A DNA stretch of 64,000 bases from Escherichia coli (GCF_003334765.1 NZ_QOWT01000004.1), one strand, 5' to 3'. Positions 2,834-45,981 are shown, numbered from the stretch's first letter. The notes: generated from the sequence alone by a model not told the origin. A program made the numbers and translations.

Positions 2834-5578
2834 TCAAATCGCGTTCAGGTCTTTCTTATGCAACCATGCTTCCAGAGCGGCAACACTGCGTGTAATTTCT
2901 TCGTGTGGAAGGGGGGCAGATAATGGCTGCTGCTCCAGTTGTGCGCATAGCTGGCTGGCGATATGCATTCCCAGACTCGAGCAACTGCTTTTTAGCTGAT
3001 GCGCGGCACGCTTTATTTTCTCGCTATCCTGACTGGCGCGGGCAATGTCGATTTCATCGAGAAGCGGCAGGGCATGTTGTGTAAATAATACCAGCCATTC
3101 GTGGATCTTCTCCGTCCCCATTAACTGAGCATCTTCATTGAGTTGCGATACATCCAGCGATTGATCATTATTGACTTGCAGTTGGAGATAGTGCGCCAGT
3201 AACTGACCGAGCACTTCACGCGGCACCGGTTTAGGGATAATCCCGCGGAATAATGAACTGGTACGCTGGCGCAGCGTTTCGTCAATGACATGGGCGCTAA
3301 AGCCAATCAAAACCAGCGACGGATATTGCTGTGCCAGTTGTCGGGCAAGCGTAATGCCGTCGATATCCGGCAGATCAAAATCCACCAGTGCGGCAGCAAA
3401 CGGTTCGCTATTTTGCAGTGTCTCTAAAGCCTGCGCGGCATTGCCAACAGCAACAATCTGTGCACCACTGGTTTTCAGCATCTCAATGGTAATTCGCTGG
3501 GTTAGCGGGTTATCTTCAATTAACAGCAAACGTAAACCGTCAAGACGCACCGCCTGATTGACTGTTTTTGGCACGGGTGCCGTGGCAACACGTAACGGCA
3601 AGCGTAAACAAAAACAGCTTCCAACCTCCGGCGTGCTGGTGGCGCTCAGTTCGCCGCCCATCGCCTGGGCCAGACGGCTACTGATAGTCAGTCCCAGCCC
3701 GGTGCCGCCGCGTTTGCCGCTTACCTGCACAAATGGCTGGAAGATTTCTGCCAGTTTCGCGGGATCAATACCGCAGCCGCTGTCTTCCACTTCGACCAGC
3801 CATTGCTCGCCATCAGTGCGACTACGCAGGATAATGTACCCTTCGTCAGTAAAACGCAGGGCGTTGCTCAACAGGTTGGTTATAACCTGACGAATACGTC
3901 GTGGATCGCCCATTAACGCGCACGGCATATCATCGGCAATTGCCGTTGCCAGGCGAATCGGGCGACCTTTCACCCGTCCGCTCATTAATTGCAGGGTACT
4001 TTCCAGCAGCGGGCGCGGTTCAAAGGGCTCATCGCTGACCGAAACATTCTTGCCACCTGCTTCGATAGCGGAATAATCGAGAATATCGTTGAGGATGGTC
4101 AGCAACGATTCACCAGAGTCAGTAATTGCCCGCAAATCATCACGCTGGGCGTTAAGTGCGGGGTTATCTGCCAGCAGTTGAGCAGTGCCGAGAATACCGT
4201 ACAGCGGTGTGCGGATCTCATGGCTCATCGCCGCCAGAAACGCCGATTTTGCCTGGCTGGCTTTTTCTGCTTCCGCCCGTGCCTGTCGGTGTTCTATCAC
4301 CAGTTCCTGCAATTCAGCTGTACGCGCTTTGACCTGCGCCGCCAGCTGTTCGCGGTGGCGATTCAGTGCATGAACATTGCTGCGAAACGCATCCATCAGC
4401 CGCCCGATGGTATCCAGCTCCCGTACGCCAGCGGTTTCCGGGAAAGGGGAGTCAATATCACCGTCCAGCAGCCGTTGCAGCGCCTGCGTTTGTTCGGCAA
4501 GTGGACGCGTGACTGAGCGATAAACCACGCGCCAGAGGATCAGAATCAGTGCGCAAAGTGAAACCATCCCCAGCAATAACAGGCTGTATTGCCCGCGTGC
4601 ACTCGCTTTTTCCAGATGCGCCAGTCCGTGCTGATTACGCAGCTCAATGGTGTCGACCAGCTGACTGACTTCGCTACTAAACTGCGCGAACTGGGCGATG
4701 TTATTTTGTGCGAGAGTTTGTAGGTGATTGCTGATTTCACTGTCCTGCTGATACAGCGCCAGCAAATCGCTATATTGGCTAACGGTAGTTAACGTTGTTG
4801 CGACCTGCGCACGAACACCCGGATCTTCAATGCGTATTTGCCGACGTTGCAGAATTTTCACCGCATTATTGAGCTGCTTTTCCAGCGTTGGTGCATTTTT
4901 CTGGATCTGCTCCAGCCCCAGATTCATCACCATTTGCTGCACCCGCAGAGCGCTAAGGCGCAGTTCATTCATCTGGTTAACATACTCAAGATCGATATCA
5001 ATCAGCCGATCGAGTGCACTTTCAGCAGCCTGACGCTGATCTTGTTCGATCAAATCGTAAATCCCGGCCTGGGTCGCTCCAGCGGAAGTTGTCGCATTAT
5101 TCGCCTGACCTTGCGCCAGGCGTGCGATCTCATCGGCGGCAGCGACTATCTGCTGACTGAGTTGCTGTTGTTGCTGGCGCAGTTGCAAACGCTGCCCCAC
5201 CAGTTCCCCTTGCTGACGTAACGAACGGGAGATCTCCTGCTCCTGTTGTTCAATAGCGGTGGTATCAAAACCTTGTTCCCGTAACGCTTGCAGCAACGCA
5301 TTAATCTTCAGGCTTTGTGCGGTGAGCATTCGCCCCTGCGCCTGCCACATCTTTTCGTTATCGGCACTGGTCAGGTTCTGCGCGGCGAAAAGTTCCCAGG
5401 CGCTGGCTTCGCTCAACTGGCGCGCCATATTCATGGTAGGAATCAATGCCTGAGTGTTGTCTTTTTCCACCTGGCTGATAAAGCGCAGGTTGTACCATCC
5501 CACCAGGGTACTGGTCAGGGTTAACAGCGCCATCAGGGCAAAGCCCATCCAGAGTCTTCGGGTCAGGGTTAAATTCAC
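2834..5578 (-). CDS. torS: TMAO sensor hybrid histidine kinase TorS
   Basis: 914-aa ORF with N-terminal TM/periplasmic region, HisKA motif (MSHEIRTPL), HATPase, receiver domain and C-terminal HPt; adjacent to torT/torR. Confidence 0.95.
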
Positions 5579-5660
5579 GGTCGGTGCACTTTAGGTGAAA
5601 AAGGTTGAGTCGCAAAGCGGAATGCATCTAGCATAAAGCCTTATTATTGATGAGGCTATC

Positions 5661-6689
5661 ATGCGCGTACTGCTATTTTTACTTCTTTCCCTTTTCATGT
5701 TGCCGGCATTTTCGGCTGATAACCTGTTGCGCTGGCATGATGCGCAGCATTTCACGGTGCAAGCCTCTACGCCGCTTAAAGCCAAACGCGCATGGAAACT
5801 GTGCGCGCTTTATCCCAGCCTGAAAGATTCATATTGGTTATCGTTGAACTATGGTATGCAGGAGGCTGCTCGCCGCTACGGTGTGGATTTAAAAGTGCTG
5901 GAGGCAGGCGGCTACAGCCAGTTGGCTACCCAGCAAGCACAAATCGACCAGTGTAAACAGTGGGGCGCAGAGGCCATTTTGCTCGGTAGTAGCACGACCT
6001 CATTTCCCGACCTGCAAAAGCAGGTAGCAAGTCTGCCGGTGATCGAACTGGTAAATGCTATTGATGCTCCCCAGGTGAAAAGCCGCGTTGGTGTGCCCTG
6101 GTTTCAGATGGGCTATCAACCGGGGCGATATCTGGTGCAATGGGCGCACGGTAAACCACTGAATGTGCTGTTGATGCCCGGACCCGATAACGCCGGGGGC
6201 AGTAAGGAGATGGTCGAGGGTTTTCGCGCAGCCATTGCCGGAAGCCCGGTGCGTATTGTTGATATTGCGCTTGGTGATAACGATATTGAAATCCAGCGTA
6301 ACCTGTTGCAGGAGATGCTGGAACGCCATCCAGAAATCGACGTCGTTGCCGGAACGGCCATTGCGGCAGAGGCGGCAATGGGGGAAGGGCGTAACCTGAA
6401 AACGCCGCTTACCGTGGTGTCGTTTTATCTTTCACATCAGGTGTATCGCGGGCTGAAGCGGGGAAGAGTGATTATGGCTGCCAGCGATCAAATGGTCTGG
6501 CAGGGGGAACTGGCGGTTGAGCAGGCCATCAGGCAATTACAGGGGCAATCGGTTTCTGATAATGTCAGCCCACCGATTTTAGTTCTGACGCCGAAAAATG
6601 CCGACCGTGAACATATTCGCCGCTCGCTGTCACCAGGGGGATTTCGTCCGGTCTATTTTTATCAGCACACATCAGCGGCTAAGAAATAA
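5661..6689 (+). CDS. torT: Periplasmic TMAO-binding protein TorT
   Basis: 342-aa ORF with signal peptide and periplasmic-binding-protein fold features; divergent from torS. Confidence 0.9.
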   Translation: MRVLLFLLLSLFMLPAFSADNLLRWHDAQHFTVQASTPLKAKRAWKLCALYPSLKDSYWLSLNYGMQEAARRYGVDLKVLEAGGYSQLATQQAQIDQCKQWGAEAILLGSSTTSFPDLQKQVASLPVIELVNAIDAPQVKSRVGVPWFQMGYQPGRYLVQWAHGKPLNVLLMPGPDNAGGSKEMVEGFRAAIAGSPVRIVDIALGDNDIEIQRNLLQEMLERHPEIDVVAGTAIAAEAAMGEGRNLKTPLTVVSFYLSHQVYRGLKRGRVIMAASDQMVWQGELAVEQAIRQLQGQSVSDNVSPPILVLTPKNADREHIRRSLSPGGFRPVYFYQHTSAAKK

Positions 6690-42276: not shown

Positions 42277-43635
42277 ATGGAAAAAGACTATTTGAGAATG
42301 AGTAGTACTGTATTAGTGAGCTTATTGTTTGGGCTTGCTTTGGTTTTGGTGAATAGTTGGTTTAATCAGCCAGGCGTTGAGGAAGTTGTTCCACGATCAA
42401 CCTATCTGATGGTAATGATTGCTTTATTTTTTATCGATACTGTTGCATTTATTTTTATGCAGTTGTATTTCATTTATGACCGTAGGCAATTTTCAAACTG
42501 TGTACTTAGTTTGGCTTTTCTGAGTTGTTTGATTTACTTTGTTATAACCGTCATTATCATTCAGCAAATTATTGAGGAGCGTTTGACAAGCAGTGTTGTC
42601 CAAAATGACATTGCAATCTATTATTTGTTTCGTCAGATGAGTTTGTGCATATTAATATTTCTGGCATTGGTGAATAAAGTTAGTGAAAACACAAAACAGC
42701 GCAATTTATTTTCCAAAAAAATGACTTTGTGCATAAGTTTGTTTTTTGTTTTTGGGGGGCCGATAGTTGCTCACATACTTTCTAGTCATTATGAGAGCTA
42801 CAATTTACACATTGCCGAGTTAACCAATGAAAATGGTCAGGTGGTTTGGAAAGCCTCATATGTTACCATAATGATTTTCATGTGGTTAACCTTGCTTTCG
42901 GTTAATCTATACTTTAATGGTTTACGCTATGATATCTGGAATGGAGTGACGGTGATTGCTTTTTGTGCCGTACTGTACAATATCTCTCTGTTATTTATGA
43001 GCAGGTATAGCGTGTCCACTTGGTATATTAGTCGCACTATTGAAGTAGTCAGTAAGTTAACCGTTATGGTAATATTTATGTGCCATATATTCAGTGCGCT
43101 ACGAGTAACAAAGAACATTGCACATCGCGATCCCTTAACCAATATATTTAACAGAAATTATTTTTTTAATGAACTGACAGTTCAATCAGCATCAGCCCAA
43201 AAAACGCCTTATTGCGTCATGATTATGGATATCGACCACTTCAAAAAAGTCAACGACACCTGGGGGCATCCGGTTGGCGATCAGGTGATAAAAACAGTGG
43301 TGAATATCATTGGGAAAAGCATACGACCAGATGACCTTTTAGCGCGCGTCGGCGGCGAAGAGTTTGGCGTCTTGCTGACGGACATCGATACTGAACGTGC
43401 GAAAGCTTTAGCGGAAAGGATTCGGGAAAATGTTGAGCGTTTAACTGGCGATAATCCTGAATACGCTATACCACAAAAAGTGACGATTAGTATTGGCGCT
43501 GTTGTGACTCAGGAAAATGCGTTAAACCCAAATGAGATCTATCGACTGGCTGATAACGCACTTTACGAGGCGAAAGAGACCGGGCGTAATAAGGTGGTTG
43601 TGAGGGATGTGGTGAATTTTTGTGAGTCACCATAA
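42277..43635 (+). CDS. dgcT: Diguanylate cyclase DgcT/YcdT (MASE4 membrane domain + GGDEF)
   Basis: 452-aa frame from MEKDYLRMSSTVLV; N-terminal polytopic membrane domain, C-terminal GGDEF domain with RVGGEEFG active-site motif. Confidence 0.95.
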   Translation: MEKDYLRMSSTVLVSLLFGLALVLVNSWFNQPGVEEVVPRSTYLMVMIALFFIDTVAFIFMQLYFIYDRRQFSNCVLSLAFLSCLIYFVITVIIIQQIIEERLTSSVVQNDIAIYYLFRQMSLCILIFLALVNKVSENTKQRNLFSKKMTLCISLFFVFGGPIVAHILSSHYESYNLHIAELTNENGQVVWKASYVTIMIFMWLTLLSVNLYFNGLRYDIWNGVTVIAFCAVLYNISLLFMSRYSVSTWYISRTIEVVSKLTVMVIFMCHIFSALRVTKNIAHRDPLTNIFNRNYFFNELTVQSASAQKTPYCVMIMDIDHFKKVNDTWGHPVGDQVIKTVVNIIGKSIRPDDLLARVGGEEFGVLLTDIDTERAKALAERIRENVERLTGDNPEYAIPQKVTISIGAVVTQENALNPNEIYRLADNALYEAKETGRNKVVVRDVVNFCESP

Positions 43636-43981
43636 AGCGGCCTGGCACACGCGTTTGATGGAAGACGGCGTTCAGGCAATGCGCGATTATCTTGCCGGAC
43701 TGGATATCGCTTCGCCAGAGCATCAGGTTCTGATGAACGTAACAGCAAAAAGCGAGGTCGCTCCGTCAATTATCAAAGAAAATCTCTCATTACACTTAAC
43801 TCATACGGTGAAATGGACTGAATCTCTCGATACATTTCTGAATATGCCAACCCCGGTAGCTTTCCTTGAAATAAGTAATAAGCCCTATTTGGGGAATATG
43901 TTAAATGATTTTGCTGGCGTGGATCAGCAACGAGTTATGCATTGTCGTAAAGCATTTAGTGATGCAAAGGTATTCAAATGA
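43622..43981 (+). pseudogene. ymdE: ymdE, C-terminal fragment of a FabD-like malonyl-CoA:ACP transacylase
   Basis: 119-aa ORF alignable by eye to the C-terminal third of FabD (VKW/QWT, LEI/YEV segments) but lacking the N-terminal GHSxG catalytic region; overlaps ycdT 3' end and ycdU start. Confidence 0.6.
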
Positions 43982-44964
43982 TTCCTGATTATTTAACTTT
44001 TATTCGCTTTCAGGATAAACGAAATCTGATATACATTTATGCTATTGGACTTATTCTGATAGGCTTTTATTGGAAGAATGCAGGGTTTACTTTTCCATCA
44101 GAGGATATTGGTGTAGTTAGTGGGATTCTGGCTCTGGTGCTGTATAATTTTATTTTTGATCTCAAGGCGTACTGGGCTTATAAATGCGTCACGAAGAATA
44201 TCGATTTTTCGTGGTTTAAGAAAAAGCAGAACCACAAAATAGAATTATTTCTTACACAACCTCTGGTGGCAGGATTTCTGTCGTTAATCATGTTGAGTGC
44301 AATGAGTTGGGGGCTATACCAGCTTCTACCCTCGTTATATGCGCTGTTCCTGATTTCGTTACTTGGGCCGTTGGTCATCTTTCTGCTGTTTCGGATGATC
44401 CGCACCAGTTATGTCAAGCAGGTCGCTATTTCAGTAGCGAAAAAAGTAAAATATAAAAGTCTGACTCGCTATGTGCTGCTTTCGGTGTGCATCTCAACGG
44501 TTGTTAACCTGCTTACTATCAGCCCGTTGCGTAACAGTGATTCTTTTGTGACAGAGGGGCAGTGGTTAACGTTTAAATCGATAATTGCATTGCTCATTCT
44601 TTGTGGCGTAGTGTTGGCGATTAATCTGTTTTTTCTGCGCTTCTCCAAGCGGTACGCTTTTCTGGGCAGGCTTTTTTTGCAGGAAATCGATCTGTTTTTC
44701 TCCAGTGAAAATGCGTTGTCGACCTTTTTTGCCAAGCCGCTTTGGCTTCGGTTATTCATATTGCTGGTTATTGAAGTGATGTGGATTACGCTGGTGTCGG
44801 TATTGGCAACGCTTGTAGAATGGCGGATTTGGTTTGAAGCCTATTTTTTACTCTGCTATGTACCGTGCTTAATTTACTATTTTTTCTATTGTCGATTCCT
44901 CTGGCATAACGATTTTATGATGGCATGTGACATGTATTTCCGTTGGGGGCATTTTAATAAGTGA
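43978..44964 (+). CDS. ycdU: Uncharacterised inner membrane protein YcdU
   Basis: 328-aa AT-rich ORF with about 8 predicted TM segments. Confidence 0.85.
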
Positions 44965-45098
44965 GGAAGTGATAGGAAGTGACCAGATAATACATATATG
45001 TTCTGTACTCTCTTGCGCATTTTGATTGTTGACTGAGTAACCAGACAGTTGATGTGCACGATTTCCCCTCGCCCTAACAGACGTGGGCGGGGGCACCC

Positions 45099-45719
45099 GG
45101 TGTGTGCAATATACGAAAAAAAAGCCCGTACTTTCGTACGAGCTCTTCTTTAAATATGGCGGTGAGGGGGGGATTGACTCGCTTCGCTCGCCCTGCGGGC
45201 AGCCCGCTCACTGCGTTCACGGTCTGTCCAACTGGCTGTCGCCAGTTGTCGAACCCCGGTCGGGGCTTCTCATCCCCCCGGTGTGTGCAATATACGAAAA
45301 AAAAGCCCGTACTTTCGTACGAGCTCTTCTTTAAATATGGCGGTGAGGGGGGGATTGACTCGCTTCGCTCGCCCTGCGGGCAGCCCGCTCACTGCGTTCA
45401 CGGTCTGTCCAACTGGCTGTCGCCAGTTGTCGAACCCCGGTCGGGGCTTCTCATCCCCCCGGTGTGTGCAATATACGAAAAAAAAGCCCGTACTTTCGTA
45501 CGAGCTCTTCTTTAAATATGGCGGTGAGGGGGGGATTGACTCGCTTCGCTCGCCCTGCGGGCAGCCCGCTCACTGCGTTCACGGTCTGTCCAACTGGCTG
45601 TCGCCAGTTGTCGAACCCCGGTCGGGGCTTCTCATCCCCCCGGTGTGTGCAATATACGAAAAAAAAGCCCGTACTTTCGTACGAGCTCTTCTTTAAATAT
45701 GGCGGTGAGGGGGGGATTC
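45099..45719. repeat. Tandem direct repeats, 181-bp unit x 3 complete copies plus a 78-bp partial copy that continues into authentic serX
   Basis: Identical units begin at 45099, 45280, 45461, 45642; each contains a terminator hairpin plus A/T run and the 3'-terminal 19 nt of tRNA-Ser. Confidence 0.9.
45659..45686 (-). terminator. Rho-independent terminator of serX (hairpin with GAAA loop + U8)
   Basis: Minus strand reads gctcgtac-gaaa-gtacgggc followed by tttttttt immediately after the tRNA 3' end. Confidence 0.8.
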
Positions 45720-45787
45720 GAACCCCCGATACGTTGCCGTATACACACTTTCCAGGCGTGCTCCTTCAGCCACTCGGACACCTCACC
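45700..45787 (-). tRNA. serX: tRNA-Ser (anticodon GGA)
   Basis: Reverse complement gives GGTGAGGTGTCCGAGTGGCTGAAGGAGCACGCCTGGAAAGTG...GGGGGTTCGAATCCCCCCCTCACCGCCA: 88 nt, long variable arm, T-loop GTTCGAATC, CCA end. Confidence 0.95.
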
Positions 45788-45981
45788 AAATTGTCGTTCC
45801 TGTCTTGCTGGAACGGGCGCTAATTTAGGGAAATCATGACCTGAGGTCAACAAACTTTTTGAAAAAATCGCGCGTTTATTCAAACTTCAATCAATGTGTG
45901 GTTTTAATAAGCGAAATCTGCTTTTTTTGCCACCGACCACGGATTTGTTATGCTGGTGGCCTTTGTAGATCATAATGATAA

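Follow-up and report, generated by a model that had tools for sequence, protein, structure and literature searches.

PMC8144298 credits Egan and Landy (1978) with the first description of the tRNA-linked repeats (TLRs). In the definition used there, the final 18-19 nt of a TLR are the 3' end of the upstream gene (PMC8144298). The catalogue of Rudd (1999), in the form relayed by PMC8144298, contains 22 TLRs at ten loci of E. coli K-12, with one to five units at each locus. The 178-bp repeats of tyrT-tyrV are known as RtT or rttR; for these, PMC8144298 and PMC3318445 point to Egan and Landy (1978) and Bosl and Kersten (1991). The same catalogue, again as relayed in PMC8144298, includes rrA, rrB, and rrF, the TLR small RNAs located between the operon terminators T1 and T2 of rrnA, rrnB, and rrnD. 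The TLRs between these terminators are transcribed by read-through, and the rrA, rrB, and rrF RNAs bind Hfq and CsrA; the 19 tRNA-linked TLRs score <0.01 in a CsrA-binding predictor (PMC8144298). According to the literature, the TLR element is also found behind 5S rRNA in many genera. The supplement of PMC8144298 describes a strain from which all 22 TLRs were deleted; among its deletions are delta(rsX1-4) (1096182-1096779) and delta(rsW') (925059-925098). Duplicated tRNA ends have also been described for genomic islands. The P4-family integrase islands at serW and serX are flanked by the 14-bp sequence TGGCGGTGAGGGGG, and the O157:H7 tellurite islands and the Shigella SRL island have the last 14 nt of serW/serX as a direct repeat (PMC3064760).

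The window analysed here is a 64-kb stretch of E. coli DNA. It contains a tandem array downstream of serX, between this gene and the convergent ycdU. The serX gene encodes tRNA-Ser(GGA) and occupies 45700-45787 on the minus strand (ARAGORN; Rfam tRNA, 53.8 bits; b1032 in the MG1655 annotation). The ycdU gene is located at 43978-44964 on the plus strand. Tandem Repeats Finder reported a single array at 45096-45718 (minus strand), with a period of 181, 3.4 copies, 100% matches, and 0 indels. This whole array consists of three full 181-bp units, a distal partial unit, and a 19-nt overlap with serX. The initial annotation of this DNA had placed the repeat starts at 45099, 45280, 45461, and 45642, in phase with this array and 3 nt inward from its true edge.

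On the serX strand, each unit begins with TATTTAAAGAAGAGCTCGTACGAAAGTACGGGCTTTTTTTT, a hairpin with A-run and U-run flanks, continues with a body of ~120 nt, and ends in AATCCCCCCCTCACCGCCA, the last 19 nt of serX. Unit 1 is proximal to serX and spans 45519-45699 (minus strand), with terminator T1 at 45659-45699, the RtT body, and the tRNA-end copy at 45519-45537. Unit 2 (45338-45518, minus strand) is identical to unit 1, with terminator T2 at 45478-45518 and the tRNA-end copy at 45338-45356. Unit 3 is proximal to ycdU and spans 45157-45337 (minus strand), with terminator T3 at 45297-45337 and the tRNA-end copy at 45157-45175. The distal partial unit (45096-45156, minus strand) contains terminator T4 at 45116-45156 and a 20-nt leader, CGTATATTGCACACACCGGG; the repeat stops there at the first G's of stem P1. 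The copied tRNA end is exact in every unit, CCA included. The 19-mer TGGCGGTGAGGGGGGGATT occurs exactly four times in the window (45157, 45338, 45519, and 45700), and the last occurrence, 45700-45718, is the true end of serX; the earlier observation that only the last copy continues into the tRNA is borne out. The 14-mer island attachment core lies within this 19-mer and was found in all four copies. The unit-specific stretch is 103 nt long with 68% G+C. It had been described as a unique, GC-rich segment of about 100 nt; the size and composition hold, but the segment is not unique, and it is the conserved RtT/TLR body rather than island debris. The flank at 44965-45095 was considered as a decayed fourth unit, and its alignment score was matched by 292 of 1,000 shuffles, so it has no significant similarity to the unit.

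The serX array shares the main features of the tyrT-tyrV prototype. In K-12, this locus has 3.1 copies of a 178-bp repeat, and a further unit lies in the spacer between tyrT and tyrV. These are likewise tandem units of ~180 bp, located just downstream of a tRNA gene on the same strand; they end in the last 18-19 nt of the tRNA, and their closing stem uses the copied end. The serX units (45157-45699, minus strand) immediately follow serX on the same strand, and all three have the 19-nt identity with the 3' end of the upstream gene. Both loci have the common core GGATGAGAA..CGAC..GGTTCGA and CCCGNAGGGCGAG..GAGTNAAT, followed by the tRNA end, and each of these blocks in the serX units aligns with the Tyr units. 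The Rfam RtT model (RF00391) matched each full unit over its full length, at 45519-45655, 45338-45474, and 45157-45293, although the score of 46.3 bits is marginal against the gathering score of 45. The tyrT-tyrV prototype units score 133-138 bits with the same model.

The published deletion coordinates lead to the same locus. They follow an older MG1655 numbering, and a shift of +777 was applied. With this shift, the two deletions named above lie 9 nt from serX and serW, respectively, and the position of tyrT is also reproduced. The delta(rsX1-4) deletion then maps to about 45094-45691 of the window, which is the array. Moreover, three "RtT sRNA" features are annotated by RefSeq at this site in other K-12 records. 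The MG1655 reference record has no annotation of the units, and b1030 and b1031 are missing between ycdU (b1029) and serX (b1032). The feature is already known as a catalogued family member (rsX1-4), and its classification is settled by the literature. We assign a probability of roughly 85% to the complete reading: the array is the serX set (rsX1-4) of the TLR family, Rfam RtT, with the 178-bp tyrT/tyrV repeat as prototype; it is resized by unequal recombination or slippage, and is transcribed by read-through.

The serX units also differ from the Tyr units in several respects. Their partner is tRNA-Ser(GGA), and stems P1 and P2 are rewritten to G6/C6, versus GGGGAAGG/CCTTCCCC in Tyr. The P3 and P4 hairpins are longer in serX, with different sequences. 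Each serX unit holds a predicted intrinsic terminator, whereas the Tyr units have no terminator hairpin. The body of the serX unit contains the closing stem P1, the hairpin P2, two more hairpins, and the conserved CCCGNAGGGCGAG...GAGTNAAT block. P2 mimics the 5' half of the tRNA T-arm (CGGGG-TTCGA). The predicted fold of the unit RNA (unit 1) has an energy of -79.8 kcal/mol with z = -5.1, and consists of the terminator hairpin and a closed four-way junction with a free ...CUCACCGCCA tail. The GAUGAG...CGAC core was also read as hammerhead-like, and this was set aside; the Rfam scan found no ribozyme family at E <= 1.

The predicted terminator is bidirectional. On the plus strand, it reads A8-GCCCGTAC-TTTC-GTACGAGC-T-rich at 45659-45699, with repeats at 45478-45518, 45297-45337, and 45116-45156, and this version was flagged four times by the terminator scan. 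On the serX strand, it reads GCUCGUAC-GAAA-GUACGGGC and then U8, which has the form of an intrinsic terminator. The 16-bp hairpin is present in the minimum-energy fold. The initial annotation was right in placing a terminator hairpin with an A/T run in each unit. In other genera, the terminator hairpin has another sequence with the pairing kept. The serW gene of K-12 has the same terminator as serX, with no unit behind it. The terminator belongs to the tRNA gene itself and has been repeated together with each unit.

The K-12 TLRs comprise four Tyr, 4+1 Ser, 5+1 Lys, three Arg, one Pro, and three rRNA units, 22 in total. All of them, including the rrnB unit, contain AACGTTGC-loop-GCAACGGCCCGNAGGGCGAG, together with a short hairpin and with GAGTNAT, which precedes the local 3' end. 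Detection of these loci by the Rfam RtT model was uneven: the proK unit scored 101 bits, those of the five lysT-operon Lys tRNAs 47-60, and that of lysV 47; the three Arg units fell below the threshold (23-31 bits), and the rrnB unit was undetected. The rrA, rrB, and rrF loci are organized like the serX array, with a stable-RNA gene, a terminator, a TLR, and a terminator. The P4/GCCCGNAGGG core is common to both, and the 3' end of the unit repeats the end of the upstream gene, as in serX. However, the upstream gene of rrA, rrB, and rrF is the 5S rRNA gene, each operon has only one unit, and these units have no T-arm mimic.

The distribution of the element was analysed by a core-pattern scan with stem positions left free, using one genome per species, which gave at least 120 loci. 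These were mostly in the Enterobacteriaceae, and Pseudoalteromonas and Lysobacter were also represented. Among the loci listed and those of E. coli, all units that have a tRNA gene in range are located downstream of that gene and on its strand, and in nearly all loci listed the first core begins 56-74 nt beyond the tRNA end. The partners in this set were Ser(GGA) for at least 82 units, Tyr for at least 78, Ser(GCT) for at least 10, and Ser(CGA) and Arg(TCT) for at least one each; this partner list is biased by the scan pattern, as the Lys, Arg, Pro, and 5S loci of K-12 show. A restriction of the family to tRNAs with a long variable arm (Tyr and Ser) was rejected for the same reason, since the K-12 TLRs also stand behind Lys, Arg, Pro, and 5S genes.

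The units are matched to their partner tRNA in several ways. Among the loci listed, the 3'-end identity is 18-19 nt in most units, with a maximum of 20, so that the identity begins at one common position of the T-loop in both the Tyr and the Ser type. The hairpin after GATGAGAA corresponds to the 5' half of the cognate T-arm: CGGGG-TTCG in Ser(GGA), AAGG-TTCG in Tyr, and AGGG-TTCG in Ser(GCT). The strand preceding GATGAGAA is complementary to the 3' end of the cognate tRNA. The K-12 Arg unit (GGGAGGAT/ATCCTCCC) and the K-12 Pro unit (GAGGA/TCCTC, with P2 as CCTCC...GGAGG-TTCGA) are likewise tRNA-matched. In an alignment of 65 units, the P1 and P2 pairs have 25-28 double-sided changes tracking tRNA identity, which go back to no more than a few independent changes of tRNA partner.

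The internal hairpins P3 and P4 are maintained with many different stem sequences. Within the Ser(GGA) type, P3 is found as CTGGC/GCCAG, CGGGC/GCCCG, CGAGC/GCTCG, CGTGC/GCACG, and CAGGC/GCCTG. The proportion of distinct segments folding better than 95% of shuffles was 76% for P3 and 60% for P4, with extracted segments folded singly, mononucleotide shuffles, and kinship ignored. MAFFT and RNAalifold recovered only P1 and P2, because the lengths of P3 and P4 differ between types. In these sequence comparisons, the internal hairpins P3/P4 are more persuasive than the P1/P2 covariation. The internal stems are kept through compensatory changes, and therefore a folded strand is under selection. Such selection is not expected of a recombination scar.

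This bears on the suggestion that the array is a stack of attachment-site remnants, in which, through successive rounds of integration and excision at the serX 3' end, each integrative element would have left behind a second copy of the tRNA end together with a scar of its own DNA. The initial annotation had raised it by regarding the duplicated tRNA ends as a footprint of site-specific integration. The serX gene is indeed a genuine integration hotspot: integration does take place at serX and serW (PMC3064760), the 14-bp direct repeat of these sites is contained in the 19-mer, and the 14-mer is present in all four copies of the array. The outer edge of the array also borders variable DNA, which is pga...ycdU in some strains and DUF2726 in others. 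This edge is recurrent but imprecise: it lies at the start of P1 in K-12, at CCGACCGGG| beside the DUF2726 gene in other E. coli, and at GGTTCG| in prophage-bearing genomes. The attL/attR of OI-43, OI-48/SpLE1, and the SRL island duplicate the serX 3' end, as the TLR units do (PMC3064760). However, the island repeats are 14 bp long and bracket tens of kilobases including an integrase (PMC3064760), whereas the TLR repeat comprises 19 nt plus ~60 nt of terminator, and brackets a conserved, structured element of ~100 nt. The terminator part would not be duplicated by site-specific integration. The bracketed DNA is the RtT body and not mobile-element DNA; it occurs at the same position behind several tRNAs, and has compensatory changes in its stems.

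The real islands leave a 14-nt repeat and no unit. In O157:H7, the ycdU side of the island has the terminator, the 14-mer, and then the integrase; on the serX side, island genes reach right up to the tRNA, and no unit is present on either side. Strain 025542-1 has the same kind of island in serX, within the true tRNA, and two intact units beyond it on the far side. These two strains provide the island at this position that the initial annotation proposed to look for. Of twelve prophage contigs, eleven have phage DNA joined to a 26-nt 3' fragment of tRNA-Ser, followed by the terminator and 1-5 RtT units; the array in these contigs is host DNA behind the displaced tRNA end. The twelfth contig (L127) is a short Tyr-type fragment. 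In four cases (O157:H7, the prophage contigs, 025542-1, and one by coordinates only), the element is in the true tRNA and the array is untouched; use of a unit's copied tRNA end as a secondary island attachment site was not seen in these four cases, which is a small sample. Islands are found without units (O157:H7), units without an island (K-12), and both together (025542-1).

Carriage of the units by phages or plasmids was also considered and rejected. The Ser unit has no match in 50,697 phage records, which likewise counts against attachment-site remnants. The plasmid matches are almost all very large non-mobilizable records, which are probably chromosome fragments. In the MG1655 reference, the annotation has no integrase within ~17 kb, in agreement with the earlier remark that none is nearby. 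In the cases examined, integration neither makes, needs, nor disrupts the units, and island repeats and TLR units occur independently of each other. The attachment-site reading is largely refuted, and we regard it as very unlikely: the hotspot is real, but the array is not a set of its remnants, as the islands and the phage records indicate. Duplications of a tRNA end beside a tRNA gene are not automatically integration footprints.

The copy number of the TLR units varies between strains. Using the 103-nt unit-specific segment only as the probe, Ser-type units were found in 3,366 of 5,426 complete E. coli genomes (62%), with 1-11 units each, 8,055 in total, and a median of 2; the other 38% had none at the stringency of this search. 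Among 60 genomes taken as a spread sample, one unit was found in 12, two in 25, three in 10, four in 9, five in 1, and six in 3. At serX itself, none (O157:H7), two, three (K-12), and six units were observed, and the record spans at this site fit 0.4, 1.4, 2.4, and 3.4 copies. Copy-number variation across genomes, which the initial annotation had anticipated, is confirmed. No RtT unit follows serW in K-12, where the shared terminator is followed by an orphan CRISPR repeat; in other lineages, serW carries units. Strain 222 has three near-identical units at serW; compared with the serX units, they show ~95% identity, and a paired P4 change (CCG...CGG to CCA...TGG) is among the differences. The arrays are homogenised within each locus, and are gained or lost as whole units. 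Unequal homologous recombination or replication slippage is expected to behave in this manner, and the array most likely grows and shrinks in this way between its 181-bp repeats.

Perfect tandem repeats are prone to mis-assembly, and the array might in principle be an expansion or collapse of a shorter repeat. We consider the chance of this practically negligible. Several K-12 complete genomes, assembled independently, have the same ycdU-serX interval of 735 bp with three units; in other strains, the unit count differs but is again a whole number; and an array of 623 bp can be spanned by single long reads. An assembly artefact, which the initial annotation had named as grounds for dismissing the repeat, is contradicted by the recurrence of the same three-unit array in these independent assemblies.

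Copy number also bears on the idea that the repeat is an amplified terminator module, with four bidirectional terminators insulating the convergent ycdU and serX. The two genes, on the plus and minus strands respectively, do converge on the array. Each unit has a long hairpin between an A-run and a T-run, which could act both ways, and this hairpin stays paired in other genera despite sequence change. However, the same terminator stands at serW without any repeat; O157:H7 has one terminator at this site, with ycdU intact; the Tyr-type units of the family have no terminator hairpin; and two-thirds of the unit is not terminator and is conserved separately. Because the number of copies at serX ranges from none to six, insulation is argued against as the purpose, and the initial proposal of a module shielding ycdU is not sustained. 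We judge this reading clearly unlikely. The stacked terminators and the extra 14-nt attachment cores are by-products of the repeat. Insulation of ycdU may be a side effect, in that the terminator stack may reduce antisense transcription into ycdU as a by-product.

Under the preferred reading of the array as rsX1-4, its RNA is probably made by terminator read-through and trimmed like a tRNA, by analogy with rtT and rrB (PMC8144298). The promoter scan found no sigma-70-like promoter within the unit on the serX strand. A TATATT box in the unit was considered as an independent promoter, and was rejected by hand inspection as having no -35 partner. The units would have no promoter of their own, and would be reached from the serX promoter when terminator T1 is read through, as shown for the TLRs of the rRNA operons. 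A transcript that passes one terminator would end at the following one, and the enzymes that process tRNA 3' ends would use the copied tRNA end to trim it to a defined length. Because every unit is preceded by a strong terminator, units 2 and 3 may contribute negligible steady-state RNA. To our knowledge, no function has been assigned to the TLRs in over 40 years. Since a strain with all 22 TLRs deleted exists and 38% of the genomes have no Ser-type units, any function is dispensable or conditional. The copy-number polymorphism, within-locus homogenisation, compensatory stems, and flanking stems that follow the tRNA provide material for the question of whether TLRs are a selected RNA or a tolerated repeat. 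Useful detail on a known family comes from the population data, from the stems matched to the tRNA, and from the hairpins that covary.

A further-reaching reading is that TLR/RtT is a single homologous and retargetable RNA module, which would either have an unrecognised templated spread between stable-RNA operons, or serve as a mimic of the cognate tRNA end. As such a mimic, it might, for example, act as a competitor or sensor for 3'-end processing, CCA repair, or the enzymes and integrases that target the tRNA end. This is based on the K-12 units behind Tyr, Ser, Lys, Arg, and Pro tRNA genes and 5S rRNA, and on the structure of the tRNA units, which carry the exact 18-19-nt 3' end; the long forms add the complementary 5' strand and the T-arm mimic. 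We regard it as tentative, with only a small chance of being correct.

Finally, a protein product of the repeat was considered, either from plus-strand ORFs of 137 aa or as a Tpr-like peptide starting at the ATG in GGATGAGAA. Two overlapping, identical 137-aa ORFs are present at 45102-45515 and 45283-45696 on the plus strand (ORF track), and some RefSeq genomes annotate a hypothetical protein here. However, with a period (181) that is not divisible by three, these ORFs change frame from one copy to the next, and we agree with the initial annotation in judging them spurious. For the peptide, the tyrT unit has an annotated 29-aa tpr that starts at the same ATG, and the serX unit has an ORF of 18 aa, MRSPDRGSTTGDSQLDRP, whose first residues are shared with Tpr. 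The common N-terminus, however, follows from the nucleotide conservation of the RNA core, and the lengths are unequal (18 aa in the serX unit versus 29 aa at tyrT). A G-run adjoins the ATG and leaves no spacing for a ribosome-binding site. The variation between genera preserves base pairing and not codons, and the frame is not kept across copies and homologues. A coding function is extremely unlikely. The 137-aa ORFs are repeat artefacts at a site where the MG1655 reference record leaves a catalogued repeat family unannotated. The locus matches that of K-12 MG1655, and the window is nevertheless a different sequence: the MG1655 chromosome has an IS3D between dgcT and ymdE that is absent from the window. 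The ycdU-serX gap is 735 bp in both sequences; the ycdU-proximal unit of MG1655 has two substitutions relative to the window (at window positions 45253 and 45293), and one more substitution is found at 45976.

The window is K-12-like but is not MG1655. IS3D, which is present between dgcT and ymdE in MG1655, is absent from the window (window 43622-43981), and a comparison over 3.5 kb shows differences at three positions (45253, 45293, and 45976). The first two leave the ycdU-proximal unit imperfect in the MG1655 reference, whereas the window units are identical to each other. The 103-nt probe, a unit-specific segment of the serX unit, was run against 5,426 complete E. coli genomes. Four matching places were found in several K-12 genomes (rows H46, H54, and H62), whereas the annotation shows only three RtT units (tRNA-linked repeats, TLR) at serX, and serW carries none.

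In MG1655, a CRISPR-DR4 repeat (Rfam, 50.1 bits) is located immediately past the serW terminator, between clpA and serW (L137 1254-1281), with another copy of CTGTACGGCAGTGAAC close to it. These serW repeats look like an orphan CRISPR array, at the site that holds RtT units in other strains.

The outer edge of the array is different in some E. coli, where a single DUF2726 gene follows phoH in place of the ~11 kb pgaD-ycdU region (L139 1704-2480; L143 and L144, both 5306-6040). In these strains, the outermost RtT unit is truncated within its T-arm-like hairpin (…CCGACCGGG, followed directly by ATGC…).

The IMG/VR prophage contigs (L125-L136) include arrays that lie behind a prophage-displaced tRNA-Ser end, e.g. 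L135 7250-8559. In these arrays, two distinct terminator hairpins, GAGTCCAGA…TCTGGAC and GAGCCTGAAC…GTTCAGGC, occur among otherwise near-identical units. In several of these contigs, the final unit ends after GGTTCG and adjoins an ORF, which, with its sequence read only by eye, resembles an XRE-type helix-turn-helix protein.

Two loci are irregular. E. coli SCPM-O-B-8794 has two RtT cores just 106 nt apart, downstream of tRNA-Ser (L038 7652-7783). The RtT core of L096 begins 39 nt past a tRNA-Arg(TCT), the sole non-Ser, non-Tyr partner among the pattern-scan matches listed. In MG1655, an Rfam match to the REP-derived naRNA4 (69 bits; L148 476-555) adjoins the far side of the TLR downstream of proK.
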